A stretch of DNA of 63,978 nucleotides, counting the filler, from Dirinaria sp. TL-2023a (lineage: Eukaryota): NCBI GenBank assembly GCA_051941275.1. It is 3 parts of 3 records of this genome, joined end to end, with 100 filler letters (N's around TTAATTAATTAA, not from the genome) between each part and the next. Parts side by side here need not be neighbours in the genome. Positions count along the whole stretch, not along the records: positions 22,473 to 44,827 come from JAVEBF010000226.1; 2 more parts are not named here. One strand, given 5' to 3'. This document shows positions 1,952-44,661 of this stretch, one piece after another. Position 1 is the first letter of the stretch. The number at the start of each line of letters is the position of its first letter. Under the pieces are notes generated by a model. That model was given only the letters and a program-made list of their open reading frames with translations, was not told the DNA's origin and searched no databases. A program made the position numbers and the translations under genes.

Positions 1952-4900
1952 ATCAAATCAGAGAAGTCTTTCATTCGCGTTTCATGCGCGCAGATGAAGT
2001 TTGAGAGAGCTGCAAAAGCGAAAGAGAGGGGAGAAAAGAGAGGCTCTGGACCGCGTACATCCGTTAACATCGTAGATCAAGTAACATAATCCACCTTCTT
2101 AGAAGGATCAGCCGGAAGGCGGGATGTGATTCTTCGCTGTGCAATAAACCTGGAACGGCATCGAATGTAGATCTCGGGGAATTGATCGGTACTTCTAGCT
2201 GTCCCACGGTACCAAGGTATAGGGTCTCAATTCAGATGAGAAAGCCGAATAGCTTGTGAAGGATGGTGAACAAGGTTAAGGAGAGATACGCTCCACGGCA
2301 GTCGCCGTGCGATAGCATGGTCTGGCTCGTGTAGGAGAACGGTGCTCCTCAATTCACACCGGGGACGGGAAGTCAATGATTGTTATTACTACAGAAAATT
2401 CTTCGAATTTCCTAGTCGTTCGATAAGACGAATCGGCGAGTACGATTCGTATGTGGTTCATGAGTAACAGTGTGCCAATTAGTCATGTTGCCGTCGGTTT
2501 ATTCTTAGTTGGCTTATCTGAACCAAGCTCATGATACTCCAAAACCAATCAGAAACGATTCCTTATGGTCGTTTACAATTCATCTTTCGGAGAGATTTTT
2601 CGAATGAAGTTACGCCCAACACGGGCCAAGTGATCGGCGTCCATGCGTCATGGATCAGCCAACGGGTACCTGACATGAAGAAGCTCATTCGCGCGCTTAT
2701 AAGTGAAGCGCGCAAAGCAAGTGCAGCCGAGATCAGCTGCCAACATAAACCTTGAAACGTAGCTGTACTTTCGTTAGAGATATGCTGACCCAGGGTTCCA
2801 ATCGACGACGGGCTGTCTAGCGTGGTGTACTGTCTTGACCGGCGTACGGACATGGCGGCTCGGACAGCAGAATTCTAGGTTAGAATCACTAGTAGTTCCA
2901 CTAGAAGGGCCAGCTCAAGGCTAACCTTCGACCTGGTCCCGTGGAAACAAATTCTCATCATCTTCGCAACTGGCATTGGTCATTCATAGAATTGCTGGCG
3001 CTGAAAGATAATCACGAGCCTCGAAAACCGTCTTATAAGCGAATAACAAACAGCTTTAGTTTCGCTCATCGTATCGTTCGCAGACACTGACCACATGTCG
3101 CTCGATATGACTCGACTAAGAGAGGATTGATTAAATGCTAGTGCTCTTATCCGACTGATGTAGAGCATGCCCCATTGCGTTTCGAACGGCGATAACGGAG
3201 GACTACACTGAAGTGGAGGATCAAGAGGTTCATTAAGAAATAGGCGGATGTTGGAGAACAAATGTTGGAGCGATGACCTGTTGCTGAATACACAGAGGAA
3301 GCTTCCTCACAAAAATCTCCTTAAGGGTAGTGGTGTTATGGAAGATACTAATATAGCAATGACGCATGATGGGATAGACATAGACGGCGTCCCATAAAAC
3401 TGCCGGCTAACTTATGTCGTCCGAAACTGACTTGACGGCGGAGCGGTTAATGGGTTCGAGTCCCTTTTGTCGGTTTCATGGTGGGCAACTCCGTCGGATT
3501 ATGTATCTAGTGACATATTAGGCATAGCGCATAAAATAAACAACTTCAAAGCCAACGATTGACGTAGAGCATGGATTTGGTCTTCGTGACAGCAGTTTTG
3601 ACACGTTCGAGTTGAAGGGAGCTTCGAATTTGTGAATTCCGTGGCCCACTGCTCCTTGCCAGATTATGTCGTGACTATGTCTCAAGCATGAAGTGCCAAT
3701 CTTCTTCCAGTGCTCAATCACCTACCCTGATTTATCGTATTTATCCTTTCTATGGAATTTGTGACATCAGTGTTCTCTTCATCACCATTCATCACCATAC
3801 AAAATTGCTGGGCTGCGACGGTCGCTAGATCCGCGCAATGGGGTTTGATGGAAAGCTGAGATCCCGTCTTTAGACATCAGTGGTATGTTTCTCGATTGCT
3901 GGAGGTATGCAAGGTAGCTTCGGAAGGCGGCGCGAAAGAAAAAAAGAAAAAAAAAAAAAAAAAAAACCAAAGAAAGAAACAAAGAAGACCTGACTACTCA
4001 GTAGTCAATCTCGCAGGAGATCCATGTTTTGGACCGTAAGCGTAATTGAGCGCATCAAACGTATTTCATTTGCAGCTCGGTTCTGAATCGATATGCCTAA
4101 TGCCATTCAGTTGTGTCGTGTCGTTGACTGACGACGTAGAGCAGTATCTAGGAAGAGTAAAGGATTCAAGGTTAATAAGAGGGGGGACATTTGATGAGAA
4201 CATCGATCTGGTTAGCATTCTCAACAACGAGGCATCAACGGGTGATTGCGAAGATCCTACTGACGAAACTGCATCCGTGCTTCACAGTATAACTTTCACA
4301 CAGCGAAAGTTCAAGAGCTCCTGTAGGAAGTAAGTCAAAGCGAATGATACAAGCCCTTGTACTATCGTATAGGATTAAAGGATCATGGGATGCCAATTTT
4401 CAAGCCATTATTCCACTGCGTCAGAGGTAGGGAGCATTGGATTGCTCTGGATTTTGTTGTTGCTTTTAGATTCGAGTATGAGTTGTATGGGATTCAAGAA
4501 GACGAGGGGGACGATGATGATTTGATGAATGGTGATTGATCGTATTGATCTACTGTGCCGTGTTGGAACGTGGCCGCGAGCCTGAAGTGGTTTTTGAAAC
4601 GGATCAACTGGAAGCTTGTAAGGTACATATTTTAGACAAGCATAACAAACAAGCCAGCGAGGCTAGATAAGGTACCGCGTGCTCTCCATGATCAATCATG
4701 CGTGCTTGACTTTCAGATACTTAACTTACATTAGTAGTATCTGGAGTCCCATGGTATCAAGCCGAGGAAGCGGAATTTCTAGGAAGCGAGTCTTGGCGTC
4801 GACTTTAGGTAAGAAGACTTGTCACGTGACCTGTCAGAGGCTGCCAGCGCAGAATGTTGTTATGTATCTTTCCCAACTTATCAAGGTAAGATTACATTAC

Positions 4901-36963: not shown

Positions 36964-38262
36964 ATGATGGCTTCCAGCGAACCTGGAGAATCTTTCACAC
37001 TCTCCCCCTCAACCCCGAAGCTCGACACTGCCGAGGACATTCTCCCACATCTAAAATCGCTTCAACAATCCTCCTCGATAACCTCTATTACCCTCTCAGG
37101 AACCACTCTCGGCGCTCCTGCCTGCGCCGCCCTTGCCTCCATCCTCCGCACAAAAGACACCCTCCAAACTGCGAACTTCGCCGACATCTTCACTTCCCGC
37201 CTGCTCTCTGAAATTCCGCCCGCCCTATCCTCGCTGCTCACTGCCTGCATTTCGCTCCCACACCTGCATACTGTGGATTTGAGCGACAATGCGTTTGGGC
37301 TGAATACCGTTACGCCGCTAGTGGAGTTCCTGTCACAACATGTCCCACTACGGCATCTGATATTAAATAATAATGGACTAGGCCCGCAGGCGGGCGCTAT
37401 GATCGCGGAAGCGTTGACGCAGCTGGCAGAAAAAAAGGAAGATGCGCGGCGGAAAATCCCTGATACCGAGGTTCCCTTGTTAGAAACTATCATCTGTGGC
37501 CGAAACAGACTTGAAAGTGGCAGCATGGCCGCATGGGCAAAGTGCTACCGGGCAAATCGTGGGGTTAAGATTGTTAAAATGGTGCAGAATGGGATTCGGC
37601 AGGATGGGGTTGCGCTACTTTTGAGGGAGGGGCTGAGGAACTGTGAGGGTCTTCAAGTATGCGATTTGCAGGATAACACTTTTACGACTGTGGGTGCTAG
37701 GGCGCTGGCGGAGGTTGTGGACGGGTGGAAATCGTTGAGGGAATTGGGCGTTGGAGACTGCCTTGTGGGTGCGAGGGGTATGGTTCAGGTTGCTGAGGCA
37801 CTTGGAAGGGGAGAGAATCAGGAACTGAGAGTCTTGAGGGCGCAGTATAATGAAATTGATGCTAAAGGTGTCGGGGCGTTGTTGAAGGTTGTGAAGTCTG
37901 GAAAGTTGGAGGGTCTGAGGAGGGTGGAGGTAAATGGTAACAAATTCAATGAGGACGATGAGGGGATCGAGGGGCTGAGGACTGCTCTGGAGGAGAGGAG
38001 AGAGGCCCATGACGGGGAAGAGGGCGAGTGGGGCATTGATGAGCTGAGTGACCTGGAAGAGGAGAGTGAGGAGGAAGACGAGGAAGAGGAGGACGAGAGT
38101 GAGAAAGAGGAAGAAGAGGAGGAGGAGGAAGGAGAGAGGGAGGGTAAAGCAGAGAAGATGTTGAAAGACGCGGATGAAGAGGAAGGCAAGAAGGTCAGTC
38201 AAAAGCAGGACGCCGAGGTTGATGAGCTGGCAGAGAAGCTGGGCCAAACGGAATTAAAATAG
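36964..38262 (+). CDS. RNA1: Ran GTPase-activating protein
   Basis: LRRs with ADIFTSRL, DLSDNAFG, GRNRLE, QNGIR and LQDNTFT; long acidic C-terminal tract. Confidence 0.93.
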   Translation: MMASSEPGESFTLSPSTPKLDTAEDILPHLKSLQQSSSITSITLSGTTLGAPACAALASILRTKDTLQTANFADIFTSRLLSEIPPALSSLLTACISLPHLHTVDLSDNAFGLNTVTPLVEFLSQHVPLRHLILNNNGLGPQAGAMIAEALTQLAEKKEDARRKIPDTEVPLLETIICGRNRLESGSMAAWAKCYRANRGVKIVKMVQNGIRQDGVALLLREGLRNCEGLQVCDLQDNTFTTVGARALAEVVDGWKSLRELGVGDCLVGARGMVQVAEALGRGENQELRVLRAQYNEIDAKGVGALLKVVKSGKLEGLRRVEVNGNKFNEDDEGIEGLRTALEERREAHDGEEGEWGIDELSDLEEESEEEDEEEEDESEKEEEEEEEEGEREGKAEKMLKDADEEEGKKVSQKQDAEVDELAEKLGQTELK

Positions 38263-38468: not shown

Positions 38469-39164
38469 TTATTCTGCTACGGGATGCCCTGGCTTCCATA
38501 GCCTCCACACATGAAGGATAGTCATCCTCTTGTTGTCATCACGCATATCTTCCTTCTCTTGCTCCTTCCAAAACTCAAACCCATTCTTCTCCAAAACCCT
38601 TTCACTGCTCCGATTCCAAATATCCGTTAAAGCCATCAAATAGGTTTTTTCATCTCCTTCTAGCACCGGATGTCCGATGGGAAATGCCTCCCAATAGGCT
38701 TGAATCAACCCACGAATCGCTTCCGTGGCGATCCCCTTTCCCCATACCGACGGGTGGAACGCGTATCCAATTTCAGGTGCAGAATGCACACCGCAGAGAC
38801 CTAGAACGCTCTTCCTGTCTTCTTCAGACGGTACCAGCCAGCTAGGATGGGGATCTTGGTCTTTATACTCGGGAGGCAGGAAGTGCACGACGAAGTTCCA
38901 GCATTTGGGGCTAGCGAGGCGTGTTTCGACCCATGCACGGGATTCTGCTAGGGTGGTATCTGGCTTTCTATTATGTACAGTAGACGGTTGTCAGACTTAT
39001 AGGCCACGACTGCGGATCGGGAAGGGGACGCACTTCCAGTGCACGATCCTAGGATCGGATTTGTGTTTATGTATTCCCGGCATATATTCGAAGCTCATTG
39101 GGCGGAGCAGAAGACGCTCGGTTTTGATCACATTTGAATGGAGGCCAGGCCATTCCTGCGCCAT
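38469..39164 (-). CDS. GNAT/RimJ-RimL family N-acetyltransferase
   Basis: IKTERLLLRP at the N-terminus, EIGYAFHPSVWGKGIATEA and NRSSERVLEKNGF; one intron near 38975-39035. Confidence 0.85.
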
Positions 39165-39876
39165 TGCGGTTTTCTCTCGACTGACTTGGTTCTTAGGAAT
39201 CGGACTGCTCTGGGGAAAGGGTTGTCGAGTCCCTCATGTAGCTCGACCCAATCGCTGCTGATGGTCAAGCCTATGGCAGGCTACCCGGATCCCCTTATCC
39301 AACATCTCGCGGGGCGAACTAGGCAGCAGATTAAGTAGGAGAGACCCTCATCATGTCCGACGACTCGAAAGGTCGGTAATGAAGTTATGACGTCTTTCTT
39401 CCCTACCTTCGATCCCATCTTCTGGATTTAGTTCGTAGTCTGCCATGGGAATCCCCAAAAGGAAGCATAAGGCATCAGAGGTTGATAGCGCTATTGCCTG
39501 AGGATCATACAAGGTACGTACGAGGGGTACTTGCTACCGACCCTCATCCCTTACCGGATCTGGACTGTTGCCTTGGCACAAGCACGTGAGAGCGTGAAAC
39601 TCTGGTACTGGAGCCTGGAAGAAAAAGATCGGCCGGGTCTCACCGCCAGAAACAACAGAAACACCCAACTAGCTGGCCAGGGAACTTTGGCACTCTCACG
39701 CCAACGAGCGATTGGCATACATGAACTAGCTTGGCTCGAAGTCGGATAAAGACCGACTCAATCCCCAGACAGATCGGTTCTGGGCGTGTAAGTTCATCTC
39801 GCCATCCAGTACTCTCATCAATTGAGATACCTGTGTCTTAAATTTCCTCCTCTGTCGTCTAGTCTTGCCTTACAAA

Positions 39877-41962
39877 ATGCCTCCAAAGCGTAAAGCGTCT
39901 GTTAAGCAGGAGGGCAAAAAGCAGCAGAAGCAGGACGGCCAGAAAGCTGTATCGCATGACATTGATGTGCCCATTGATGAAGGTTTCCTTGCAGATGGTG
40001 AGCTGCCAACTATATCGCCAATAGACGTCTAAGGCAAGGGTCAGTTCAAGGTCACTAATGACTGACACGAGGGAATAGGAAGTGCCAAGGTCCATGTCGA
40101 TGAGGATAGCATCATCTACGATGCGTCCTTGAATCAGACTAACATTGGGGGAAACAACAACAAAGTCCGCCGTCTGTGACGCTGTAAGCCATTTTAGCAT
40201 GCTGACTGGTGAGTCAGTTCTATCGCCTACAACTCCTGCAGGATGGTCAGGGTAAGGAGTACTACTGCCATACTCGATGGGGTAGGGTTGGTGAGTTCGG
40301 CCAAAGCAAGACAATGGGCCCGACGTCCCTGGACGCCGCCTACAAAGAGTTCCTGAAGAAATTCAAGGACAAGTCTGGCCACAAATGGGAAGACCGCGGA
40401 GAACCAGCCAAGAAAGGCAAATACACCTTTCTCGAGCGTAGCTACGAAGATGACGACGAACAAGACAACAGCGGCGTCAAGAAAGAAGAAGACGATGATG
40501 GCTCGCCTCCTATTGAAAGCAAACTGCCTCGTCAGGTTCAGCGACTTGTGGAGCTGATATTTAACCAAAATCACTTCAATGCGACGCTTGAGTCTATCGG
40601 TTACAACGCCAACAAGCTGCCACTTGGTAAGCTCTCTAAAGCTACCTTGAAACAAGGCTTTGAGCATCTTCACGAGCTGGCGGCCCTCATTAAACACCCA
40701 AGCCTGGCTCAGAACAAGTACCAAGTCTCACAGCAAGAGGTAAGCCAGTAAAGGGGATCTCATCGCAAGTCTTCTTGCAATCCTACACACTCTTACATAT
40801 GTAAGATTCTAGCGAGATCGCAATTGCTTTCTATGCTATGTCTGTCTAATCTTGAACGTACAACCGATGTCTTGCAATGAACACTTGTCTCCAAATCCCC
40901 TGTCAAGTCGAGAAAAATGCGTCAGCAACTGACGCTTTGTGAGAGTAGGCGCTTGAAGACTTTTCCAACAAGTACTACTCGACGATACCCCATGAATTCG
41001 GCCGCAGTCGTCCACCGCTGATTGATAATCAAGACACGCTTCGTGCTGAGACTTCTATGCTTGACACCCTGACTGACATGGAAGTTGCCAATACTATAAT
41101 GAAGACAACGGCTGACAAGAAAAAAGACGCGGAAGCCGTCAGCATTATTGACAAGCGTTTCCGGGAGCTTAGCATGGAAGAGATGACTCCGCTGGAACAT
41201 AAGTCATCCGAGTATAAAGCGCTAGCTGACTACCTCATCAAGTCGTCCGGGACGACTCACGGTATCCGCTATCGTCTGGAAGACATCTTTCGCATCGAGC
41301 GTGTCGGAGAAGTCGATCGTTTTGACAAATCTCGATTCGCGAAACTGCATAAATCCGATAAGCGGCTCCTATGGTAAAATGCTACATTTTTATCTTCTTA
41401 GTATTTCACATCTGACGCTATTAGGCACGGGTCACGAACTACCAACTTTGGTGGTATCCTGTCTCAAGGACTCCGCATTGCTCCTCCGGAAGCTCCCGTC
41501 AATGGGTACGCTTTTGGCAAAGGTGTTTATCTTGCTGATATCTCCAGCAAGTCAGCACAATACTGTTCTTCCGGAATGAGTGGCGATACAGGCCTCCTGC
41601 TGCTGTGCGAGGCAGAGCTTGGCAAGCCGATGTACGAGATCCCGACTGGGGATTCTGGTGCTCGAGAGCAGGCCGAAAAGCGCGGATGTATATCGACGCT
41701 TGGTGTCGGACGTACAGCTCCTCAAGGGTGGACCGATGCTGGCATCATCCATGATAGTCTTCAAGGTGTCCAGATGGTAGGTCACGTTCAGGCTTATCGC
41801 TCCTCTTGGGATTGTGCTAATGGAGCAACGTAGCCCGATGTCAGCCAAGGCATTGGTGACAACAAAGCAGCGAATGCCAATGGGTATCTCATGTACAACG
41901 AGTATATCGCCTACGATGTTGCTCAACTGCGCCTGAAATATCTTTTCCGCATTGGGATGTAG
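39877..41962 (+). CDS. Poly(ADP-ribose) polymerase (WGR + regulatory + catalytic domains), multi-exon
   Basis: WGR domain ([19 protein letters not shown]...TRWGRVG), LPLGKLSK, and the catalytic H-Y-E motifs [33 protein letters not shown] and YNEYIAY. Confidence 0.92.
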
Positions 41963-42396
41963 ACTCCAGTCTGTCACGACTAAGTGAGAACTGTTCGTCG
42001 GTGGCAGTGCTTCGAGTGGGGTTCTACGATTGCATCAACTGGCAAAGAAATTTAGTAGATTTGTTCAAGCTTGCTATAAGGCTATGAGCCTTTGGTGCCT
42101 CCATCTGAACACCGAGTTAGAGACTAGTCAACACACATTTGTGATCTGGATTGCTGTTCTTCAGCCTAGATTTATTGCAAGCTTTTTACGAAATAAGATA
42201 GGGTGTCGAAAGCCATTCAATCCAGCGTAAGATCATCAAGTGTTTGGGGCGTTATCAGAGAAGAGTCCTCAATGCTTAGAGCGAGTACAGTAGATAAAAT
42301 GTTAGAGCCTCCGGCTCGTCTTCTTACACCACCTCATCATTGATTGTATATACTTCATCGAGGATTTCACAGGGGGGCAAAAGTTGAAAGGACTAC

Positions 42397-42434
42397 GAAA
42401 AAGAAAAAAAAAAAAAAATAAAAGGAAAAAAAAA
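42397..42434 (-). terminator. Oligo-T RNA polymerase III terminator of the tRNA-Tyr gene
   Basis: T-runs on the minus strand begin 14 nt downstream of the discriminator A73 (42448). Confidence 0.75.
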
Positions 42435-42447
42435 GTTTGATAGTTGT

Positions 42448-42594
42448 TCCCTTGGGGCTATTAATGATGTTAGACATCATTCAAGGAATTTCAAGTTTTG
42501 ATGGTAGTTGGAACTTACCGGAGTCGAACCGCCGACAACCCGGTAACAATTTTCAATTACAGCCGGGTGCCATAACCAACTAGACCACCAAGGG
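42448..42594 (-). tRNA. tRNA-Tyr(GUA) with a canonical 12-nt anticodon intron (42556-42545) and a 61-nt spliceosomal-type intron in the T-stem (42518-42458)
   Basis: Spliced sequence: CCCTTGG TG GTCT AGTTGGTTA TGGC A CCCGG CT GTA A/A CCGGG TTGTC GGCGG TTCGACT CCG/CC CCAAGGG A. It has a 7-bp acceptor stem, 5-bp anticodon and T stems, and the eukaryotic Tyr identity elements C1:G72 and A73. Confidence 0.9.
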
Positions 42595-42738
42595 CGTTGA
42601 GTATTTCGCCGCTAATTTTTATATAATACCTTTAAAATCTAGGGTTTCTGGTCCCGAGCAGTGATTGGGGAGGTAGCTAAACCAGATCTTCTGCGTCTAT
42701 TCAGCATGAAGATTGACTATCCTATGCAACCACAAATT

Positions 42739-44661
42739 ATGTCTTCACCCTCTCCAAGGAAGCCTAGAAAGAAGAAGAAAGACACGACCAAATCTACAGA
42801 AATCACCAAGAATCAAATCCTGACAACCAATAAGAAAACAACCGCCGCAATCCCCACATTCCCCCTCGCCTCTATACTATGGCCTGCTCGCGGGTCAACG
42901 TCTCAATGGGTCACTCTACCGCTGATATTAATGGCTGTAGGCCTCTTCAGATGGAGTGCTGGCTTCTGGGGTTATTCTGGTATGAATCTACTTCAATGTG
43001 CAGTTCTGCAATGCTCACATCTTTCTAGGCTTCAATACCCCCTTCATGTATGGCGACTTTGAAGCTCAAAGACACTGGATGGAAATCACTACACATTTAC
43101 CCGTCTCTCAATGGTATTTTTACGACCTCGAATACTGGGGACTCGACTATCCGCCCCTGACAGCTTACCACAGTTGGCTTCTTGGAAATTTGTAAGTCTG
43201 GTGGAGATATATTTCACAAGCAACGATGGACTGACAGAGCACCGCAGAGGTTCCTTCATCAATCCGACATGGTTTGAGCTGGAAAGCTCCCGGGGTTTTG
43301 AGGGTCAACTCCTCAAGGTCTACATGCGCGCAACTGTCCTCGTTTCTGAATATCTTGTCTACATACCTGCAGCAGTCATTCTCAACCGTGGGCTCTCAAG
43401 GTTACACGGTGTTAGTAAATGGGAGAGCTCCATTGCTTTGACAGCGATCCTTATGCAGCCAGCCACGATACTCATCGACCATGCACATTTTCAATACAAC
43501 ACTGTGATGCTAGGCTTCACAATTGCCAGCATCTCCAGTATCGTCGCAGGTCGAACCCTCTGGGCTTGCGTCTTCTTCGTTTCCGCTCTCTGTTTTAAGC
43601 AAATGGCACTCTACTACGCGCCTGCGATATTTGCCTATCTTCTCGGTGTCTGCATTTCCCCTCGCCCAAGTATCATCCGCTTCATCGGCATAGCGATCGT
43701 CACACTGTTCACATTCGCGACGATTTTCGCTCCTCTTTTGCTTGGGGCCCTTGTTGACAGTCACCGTAACATCTCACCCACGCCCGACCTCACGGACCCA
43801 CCTCTTCCGTCCTTGCTCTTATCCCTTCCCATATCTCTCGACCGCCAGGCATGGTACTTTCCGCCGATCCTCCAATTGAGCCAATCCATCCATCGGATCT
43901 TCCCCTTCGCGCGCGGGATCTTCGAAGACAAAGTCGCCAACCTCTGGTGCGCTCTACATACGGTCCACAAACTCCACCACTATTCCAAAGCCGCCATCCA
44001 GCGCGTCTCCCTTCTGATGACGATCGTTTCCATCCTGCCCGCCTCGATGATCATCTCGCTATTCCCTCGCAAAGAGCTGATACCCTGGGCAATGGCCAGT
44101 ACGGCATGGGGCTTCTATCTATGCTCATTCCAGGTGCACGAGAAAAGCGTGCTGTTGCCACTCCTACCGATGACAGTGATGTTGGGTGGAGACGGAGGTC
44201 TAGGGATGGAAACCAGAGGCTGGATCGGATGGGCGAACCTGCTGGGAACATGGACCCTGTTCCCACTTTTAAAACGTGATGAGCTGAGGGTCCCATACGC
44301 CGTTCTGAGCCTGCTATGGGCTTACCTACTCAGTCTGCCCCCAACGTCCCTATCTCTCTACACAGCGCGCACCACGCAATCGAAAACGGGACTCAGGATC
44401 ACCACCAGAGCGCTGCACCTGGCCTTTTACGCAGCCATGCTCGGATGGCATGTTCTGGAAGCATTCGTCCCAACGCCCGCCGGCAAACCGGATCTGTGGG
44501 TCGTGCTGAACGTGCTGGTCGGTGCCGCGGGGTTCGGGATCTGTTATCTCTGGTGCACGTGGCAGTTGATCCTGAGGAGCGGCGTGCTGGAGGATTATTT
44601 CGGCGTCCGGCTGCGCTTGGAAAGTAATAACATCGCAGCAGCAGAGAAGAAGAAGAAATAA
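42739..44661 (+). CDS. ALG6: Dolichyl-P-Glc:Man9GlcNAc2-PP-dolichol alpha-1,3-glucosyltransferase
   Basis: [64 protein letters not shown]-terminal KKKK ER-retrieval-like end. Confidence 0.95.

Follow-up and report, generated by a model that had tools for sequence, protein, structure and literature searches.

Ectopic spliceosomal introns, of the type found in messenger RNA (mRNA), are known from the nuclear ribosomal DNA (rDNA) of lichen-forming ascomycetes (Bhattacharya et al. 2000, via PMC5855946 and PMC8527467). Their removal has been shown in mature ribosomal RNA (rRNA), and a 57-bp rDNA intron of Cladonia grayi is removed from RNA polymerase I (Pol I) transcripts even in yeast (PMC8527467). 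Likewise, the U6 RNA of S. pombe, which RNA polymerase III (Pol III) transcribes, carries an mRNA-type intron (PMC5855946). Other fungal U6 introns have been described (Tani and Ohshima 1989, 1991; Canzler et al. 2016), as have introns in U1, U2, and U5 of Rhodotorula hasegawae, and in the U6 introns it is the signals that are conserved and not the interior (all via PMC5855946). According to this 2018 U6 review, the genes with spliceosomal introns are those of U6, U2, U5, U1, and rRNA, with tRNA absent from the list (PMC5855946), and a 2025 paper treats spliceosomal introns as those of RNA polymerase II (Pol II) transcripts and the three eukaryotic intron types as unrelated (PMC12530127). The subject of the present analysis is a tRNA-Tyr gene of Dirinaria sp. 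TL-2023a (assembly GCA_051941275.1, record JAVEBF010000226.1), whose T stem is split by a 61-nt insert that has the signals of an mRNA intron, in addition to an ordinary tRNA intron. The whole stretch of DNA analysed, 63,978 nt in three parts joined by filler, is called the window.

Like the lichen rDNA introns, the insert is found in the same fungal class, has a similar length (~57-61 nt) and mRNA-type signals, and interrupts a structural RNA gene that is probably outside Pol II transcription, in an RNA whose folding demands exact removal. However, the host of the rDNA introns is a Pol I rRNA, no intron of another, unrelated type shares a small RNA with them, and their removal is established, whereas that of the tRNA insert is predicted from DNA. 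With the U6 introns it shares the placement of a spliceosomal-type intron in a highly conserved RNA that would be a Pol III transcript. The usual explanation for intron gain in U6 is reverse splicing, given the position of this RNA in the catalytic centre of the spliceosome; a tRNA has no such proximity to that centre. Introns of tRNA genes are also of the canonical type, located between positions 37 and 38 and removed by the tRNA splicing endonuclease (SEN/TSEN) and a ligase, or of the bulge-helix-bulge (BHB) type. The gene's own 12-nt intron is canonical, and the intron of tRNA-Tyr has been called the most widely conserved in eukaryotes (PMC12168002). In contrast, the 61-nt insert interrupts the T stem, has no BHB, and carries GT..CTAAC..YAG signals. 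A spliceosomal intron in a tRNA gene was not found reported in the full-text literature, a search whose reach stops short of most subscription journals and supplements, and this agrees with the original prediction, made from the sequence alone, which knew of no such case. The tRNA-Tyr gene would probably be the first tRNA case among ectopic spliceosomal introns in structural RNA genes, and its product the first RNA to need both splicing systems.

The gene occupies 42594..42448 on the minus strand and falls into four pieces: 38 nt, a 12-nt intron, 26 nt, and the 61-nt insert together with 10 nt (Table 1). Exact excision of the insert joins CCG to CC, by which the T stem regains its 5 bp and the acceptor stem its 7 bp, with C1:G72 and A73, the tyrosine identity set of eukaryotes and archaea. 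When 42518..42458 was cut out by script, ARAGORN called a tRNA-Tyr(gta) of 74 nt with a 12-nt intron; with the insert in place and the intron search on, it found no tRNA in the whole window or on the genomic locus. The Rfam tRNA model likewise gave nothing at its gathering threshold over the whole window and reached 19.1 bits on the genomic locus, as against a gathering score of 29, in a sub-threshold alignment that pushes the start of the insert into the acceptor strand. Every statement of the original prediction on the sequence itself was confirmed: the tRNA at these coordinates with its 61-nt insert, GTAAGT/CTAAC/TAG, and 12-nt intron; the restoration of the T stem (5/5) and acceptor stem (7/7), with C1:G72 and A73, upon excision at GT/AG; and the intact B box ahead of the insert, the lack of an internal T4 run, the downstream oligo-T, and the upstream TATA-like element (TATATAAAAA). 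Its expectation that a Tyr-GTA call would appear only after removal of the insert also held, with ARAGORN.

The gene is overlooked by both ARAGORN and Rfam in 6/6 sequences, namely the window and the five metagenome loci described below, so annotations of such fungi may lack a real tRNA gene. In the paper on tRNAscan-SE 2.0, non-canonical introns are sought only via BHB models in archaeal mode, and the stem 'spliceosom' is absent (PMC8450103). Two other candidates in the window were discarded: an Rfam match to a leu/phe leader (21.8 bits versus a gathering score of 70) is ascribed to chance, as probably is a second exact match to the B-box consensus at 3453..3463 (+), which has no tRNA-like arms around it (2 matches versus 0.52 expected).

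Metagenome contigs were scanned with a pattern representing the T arm/donor junction, and 15 loci were obtained. In five of these (L006, L007, L010, L011, and L012), the gene recurs together with a homologous insert of 60-61 nt at an identical position; in the other ten (L001-L005, L008, L009, and L013-L015), a tRNA is absent around the match, which is attributed to chance. L010 and L011 are identical here, so the five loci represent four distinct sequences and, with the window, five distinct sequences were compared (5/5 below). L011 and L012 come from one metagenome assembly as two versions of the locus with diverged flanks, from two related fungi or two haplotypes. Gene order at the orthologous loci is shared (acetyltransferase-like ORF, PARP, tRNA, ALG6; blastn), and DNA identity is 66-73% in coding parts and 86-90% at the tRNA locus (blastn). 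In addition, two DNA-type contigs of a relative in a lichen-metagenome run (X1) span 42444..42491 and 42495..42601, insert included, with one additional base in the insert, one in the canonical intron, and diverged flanks. Six different sequences, drawn from at least five assemblies, thus share the structure, which is therefore no artefact of assembly. A 30-nt pattern from the 5' half of the tRNA had 0 matches in genome contigs and 0 in viral contigs, another run (X6) had no match to the locus, and in the screen of sequencing runs no RNA run matched the locus, the best run reaching 0.06 of 54 sampled words. A 38-nt AT-rich match in two runs (X2 and X12), with 7 differences and unlike flanks, was judged spurious.

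Alignment of the five distinct sequences reveals that none of the 74 exon columns is variable (0/38 in exon part 1, 0/26 in exon part 2, and 0/10 in the 3' exon), as compared with 3/12 in the canonical intron, 18/64 in the 61-nt insert, 53/66 in the 5' flank, and 49/62 in the 3' flank. The 10-nt 3' exon is invariant even though it stands behind the insert and ahead of diverged sequence; unless linked to position 63, it would be of no use. In the donor, variation is confined to +3 (GTAAGT/GTGAGT), and in the acceptor to -3 (TAG/CAG), both of which are degenerate consensus positions, while CTAAC and the 12-nt distance from the branch to the 3' splice site are fixed in 5/5 and the length of the insert stays at 60-61 nt. 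An intron of the 12-nt type at 37/38 is also present in 5/5. This pattern bears the mark of selection on a tRNA gene that contains introns rather than of the decay of a pseudogene.

It could nevertheless be argued that the gene is dead or redundant, that the insert is an intron-like insertion, that the exons are kept identical by gene conversion from intact paralogues, and that a palindrome within the conserved part of the insert is an element of the ALG6 promoter. The locus is, after all, rejected by tRNA finders, and the palindrome does lie within the conserved block, ~260 bp upstream of the ALG6 start codon. However, conversion from an intron-less donor cannot keep a 10-nt 3' exon that sits behind a 61-nt insert, nor can it account for the retention of donor, branch, acceptor, insert length, and branch distance, in which nothing but degenerate positions has changed. 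Furthermore, chance would place the three splice signals at these points of a random 61-mer with a probability of only ~8e-7, the terminator and the TATA-like element are kept too, and 0/74 exon columns vary, as compared with ~80% of flank columns. A dead or redundant gene is consequently considered decidedly unlikely.

The insert has the make-up of a U2-type GT-AG intron: a GTRAGT donor, a CTRAC near the 3' end, and a YAG acceptor. The claim that it resembles mRNA introns of this genome in size and signals was upheld by comparison with the two 5' introns of ALG6, which are 49 and 56 nt long. The insert fits them in size, and its signals are nearer to consensus than theirs (donors GTATGA and GTAAGT, branch-like CTCAC and CTGAC, acceptors TAG and CAG); the ALG6 introns are kept in position and length in relatives, with diverged interiors. 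A looser screen of the window yielded 18 candidate intervals, 43-130 nt long, a number of which pair a single donor with different ends. No further copy of the insert was seen in the 64-kb window or the 15 loci, where only orthologous copies and chance matches of 10-14 nt were present; a multicopy, introner-like element is thus unsupported, 64 kb being little to go on.

Other fates for the RNA of a functional gene have been considered, in which the tRNA endonuclease, or some other combination of nuclease and ligase, removes the insert, or the RNA keeps its full 147 nt and acts as a tRNA-like molecule. Non-canonical BHB introns do occur in tRNAs of archaea and some algae (PMC3978253, PMC4033280). 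In addition, the unspliced RNA folds at -48.1 kcal/mol (z -3.69), with the acceptor stem present in the minimum-energy fold. However, the BHB geometry, in which two 3-nt bulges flank a 4-bp helix at the splice sites, fails a strict test at 63/64 in 5/5 (central helix 1-2/4, outer 1/3, and inner 0/3 pairs), whereas the canonical 12-nt intron passes the same test in 5/5 (central helix 3/4, outer 3/3), and a group I or II ribozyme needs far more than 61 nt. Left in place, the insert would disrupt both the T stem and the elbow of the tRNA, and none of these routes accounts for the conserved GTRAGT, CTAAC, and YAG. Removal by a nuclease, or function without removal, is judged very improbable.

By its consensus motifs, the gene is laid out as a type 2 Pol III unit, with an A box, a B box, and an oligo-T terminator. 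No run of four or more T lies within the precursor in the window sequence, the same holds in 5/5, and the first such run begins 11-14 nt past A73 in all five; AT-rich, TATA-like strings near -30 are also present in L006, L007, L010, and L012. Downstream of the tRNA, the window has a long T-rich, low-complexity tract at 42388..42438 (T9, then further T-rich runs), where the relatives have only T4-T7. The precursor would accordingly be expected, on these motifs, to come from Pol III. The same gene with the same spliceosomal step might instead depend on a Pol II precursor, either a short capped RNA started from the TATA element or a longer non-coding transcript, from which RNase P and RNase Z would release the tRNA after splicing. 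Such a source would suit the normal coupling of spliceosomal splicing to Pol II (PMC12530127, PMC8527467), and tRNA-like or tRNA-Sec transcripts made by Pol II have precedent (PMC2943599, PMC6152437); a TATA element at -30 suits either polymerase. However, a T4-T9 run 11-14 nt past A73 with no internal T4, in 5/5, is a Pol III arrangement, the A and B boxes are undamaged and stand at the right spacing, and the U6 and lichen rDNA introns demonstrate that Pol III and Pol I transcripts can be spliced. A Pol II precursor is therefore viewed as unlikely.

Taken together, these results favour a working nuclear tRNA-Tyr(GUA) gene whose T-stem insert is a U2-type intron, removed by the spliceosome and older than the split of the sampled lineages, a reading to which a probability of about 0.68 is assigned. 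In this model, Pol III would be guided by the intact A and B boxes, both of which lie 5' of the insert, and by the TATA-like element at about -30, would pass both introns, which hold no T4 run, and would stop in the T run 11-14 nt past A73. In the unspliced precursor the T stem would be unable to close, as only 3/5 of its pairs could form. The spliceosome would then recognise CCG|GURAGU, a branch sequence UCUAAC lying 12 nt before the 3' splice site, and YAG, joining G63 to C64. Only after this step would the T arm and acceptor stem form, making the RNA available to RNase P, RNase Z, CCA addition, and export, and the tRNA splicing endonuclease and ligase would subsequently excise the 12-nt intron at 37/38. 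If the insert is handled by the spliceosome and the 12-nt intron by the endonuclease, one 74-nt RNA depends on two unrelated splicing systems; since the intron is mRNA-like and the arrangement is kept in relatives, the tRNA probably does need both machineries.

Several considerations weigh against this explanation. Splicing of the insert, and its removal by the spliceosome in particular, is deduced from genomic sequence. The spliceosome normally acts on Pol II transcripts, and a 3' exon of 10 nt followed by a short trailer is smaller than usual. In any tRNA, the A and B boxes also have a structural role, so their conservation is by itself no proof of Pol III. Uninterrupted tRNA-Tyr genes could carry the whole load and could also serve as gene-conversion donors that keep the exons identical. 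Finally, the interior of the insert is more conserved than that of ordinary ALG6 introns, and splicing signals alone are insufficient to explain this. Among the window, L006, L007, and L010, 18/64 columns of the insert are again variable, versus 29/49 in ALG6 intron 1 and 32/59 in ALG6 intron 2. At loci beside ALG6, the original prediction had foreseen conserved exons and splice signals with a diverged intron interior; the exons and signals are indeed kept, but with only 18/64 variable columns the interior has not diverged freely.

A 24-nt block lies in the 3' half of the insert, and the only difference among the sequences within it is one inserted T; over sequences sharing the block, the neighbouring mRNA introns are >50% variable. 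The block holds a predicted hairpin, of which 8/8 pairs are invariant in the five sequences, and with every pair invariant there is no covariation evidence for it. One role for the hairpin may be to present the branch site; alternatively, it may belong to the divergent promoter of ALG6, as a palindromic DNA element.

Other parts of the insert are predicted to pair with the exons. In a consensus fold, intron positions 42511..42498 (-) pair with 42591..42576 (-), which are tRNA nucleotides 4-11 and 14-19, and the intron sequence YYCTTG at 42486..42480 (-) pairs with the 3' exon at 42454..42448 (-). On the alignment, 143/144 cells pair across the five sequences; five pairs vary, on the intron side only, with pairing kept by G.U or A-U, and one pair is broken, in L006. 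However, the energy of the intron-exon duplex is matched by 23-285/1000 shuffles, depending on the sequence, and the score of a local alignment of the insert against the reverse complement of the exons by 16-790/1000. Because the exon partners are invariant, compensatory change is impossible, and the shuffle control on the alignment is uninformative. The intron-exon complementarity, being not clearly beyond chance by these shuffles, is therefore not taken as a finding in itself. The idea that the intron arose from a directly duplicated piece of tRNA sequence was also rejected, as the alignment score is matched by 530-893/1000 shuffles.

These features have led to a further, more tentative suggestion. 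In a clade of lichen-forming fungi, a tRNA-Tyr gene, possibly the main or only one, may have become dependent on the spliceosome, and the architecture of the intron itself, that is, the segment pairing with tRNA nucleotides 4-19, a pseudo-acceptor strand on the 3' exon, and the branch-site hairpin, may keep the precursor in a shape unlike that of a tRNA before the spliceosome acts. This elaboration is regarded as doubtful.

As to the host lineage, the best named relatives of the RanGAP protein encoded in the window are those of Heterodermia speciosa and Physcia stellaris (74% each; Physciaceae, Caliciales), and the remaining named matches belong to genera that we take to be lichen-forming Lecanoromycetes. 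The large ALG6 exon has 80% protein identity between the window and L006. The nearest named relatives of the L006 ALG6 are in the Teloschistaceae (71-73%), and relatives of this orthologue carry PF03155 and are named alpha-1,3-glucosyltransferase. Judged by these protein matches, the window and its relatives are Lecanoromycetes, and the intron is common to diverged members of one lecanoromycete clade.

Table 1. Coordinates, in the window, of the parts of the tRNA-Tyr gene, its putative signals, and the neighbouring genes
Feature	Position	Strand	Basis or remark
tRNA-Tyr exon part 1	42557..42594	-	acceptor 5' strand, D arm, anticodon stem/loop up to canonical splice site, 38 nt; ARAGORN cloverleaf after insert removal
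A box in exon part 1	about 42587..42576	-	anticodon GTA in same exon part; A-box region invariant
Canonical tRNA intron, 37/38, endonuclease type	42545..42556	-	12 nt; ARAGORN intron call
tRNA-Tyr exon part 2	42519..42544	-	anticodon stem 3' strand, variable loop, T stem 5' strand, T loop, T-stem positions 61-63; 26 nt
B box GGTTCGACTCC	42530..42520	-	in exon part 2; ends one base ahead of the 61-nt insert
Spliceosomal-type intron between tRNA positions 63 and 64 (T stem)	42458..42518	-	61 nt; GT..CTAAC..AG signals
Insert donor GTAAGT	42518..42513	-	sequence read
Insert branch CTAAC	42473..42469	-	branch A = 42470, 12 nt from 3' splice site
Insert acceptor TAG	42460..42458	-	sequence read
Conserved hairpin in insert	42463..42481	-	predicted; 7-bp stem AATGATG/CATCATT (7-8 bp), branch motif in and beside loop
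tRNA-Tyr 3' exon	42448..42457	-	10 nt; T-stem positions 64-65, acceptor 3' strand, discriminator A73
T9 run, likely Pol III terminator	42426..42434	-	begins 14 nt past A73
TATA-like element TATATAAAAA	42616..42625	-	-31..-22 relative to tRNA position 1
ALG6 5' introns	42980..43028 (49 nt), 43192..43247 (56 nt)	+	delimited by reading frame and alignment to relatives
RanGAP gene, single exon	36964..38262	+	neighbour
Acetyltransferase-like small ORF	38469..38990	-	syntenic with metagenome loci (not L012)
PARP-like gene with introns	39871..41955	+	syntenic with metagenome loci (L012: PARP part only)
ALG6-type glucosyltransferase gene	42739..44661	+	divergent to tRNA; blastn synteny and alignment

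If the tRNA-Tyr gene is what it appears to be, the spliceosome can serve the main product of the third polymerase, and the gene provides a natural substrate for asking how splice sites are found when Pol II coupling is lacking and the 3' exon has 10 nt. The lichen-fungal habit of placing introns in RNAs of the translation apparatus would then extend from rRNA to tRNA, and a wider class of such genes may exist. Should the tRNA indeed depend on the spliceosome, finders blind to such introns would undercount fungal tRNA genes, and no earlier tRNA would be known whose maturation takes the spliceosome as well as the tRNA endonuclease. The supply of tRNA-Tyr would then be tied to the capacity of the spliceosome, much as the rDNA introns have been proposed to throttle ribosome production in lichens.

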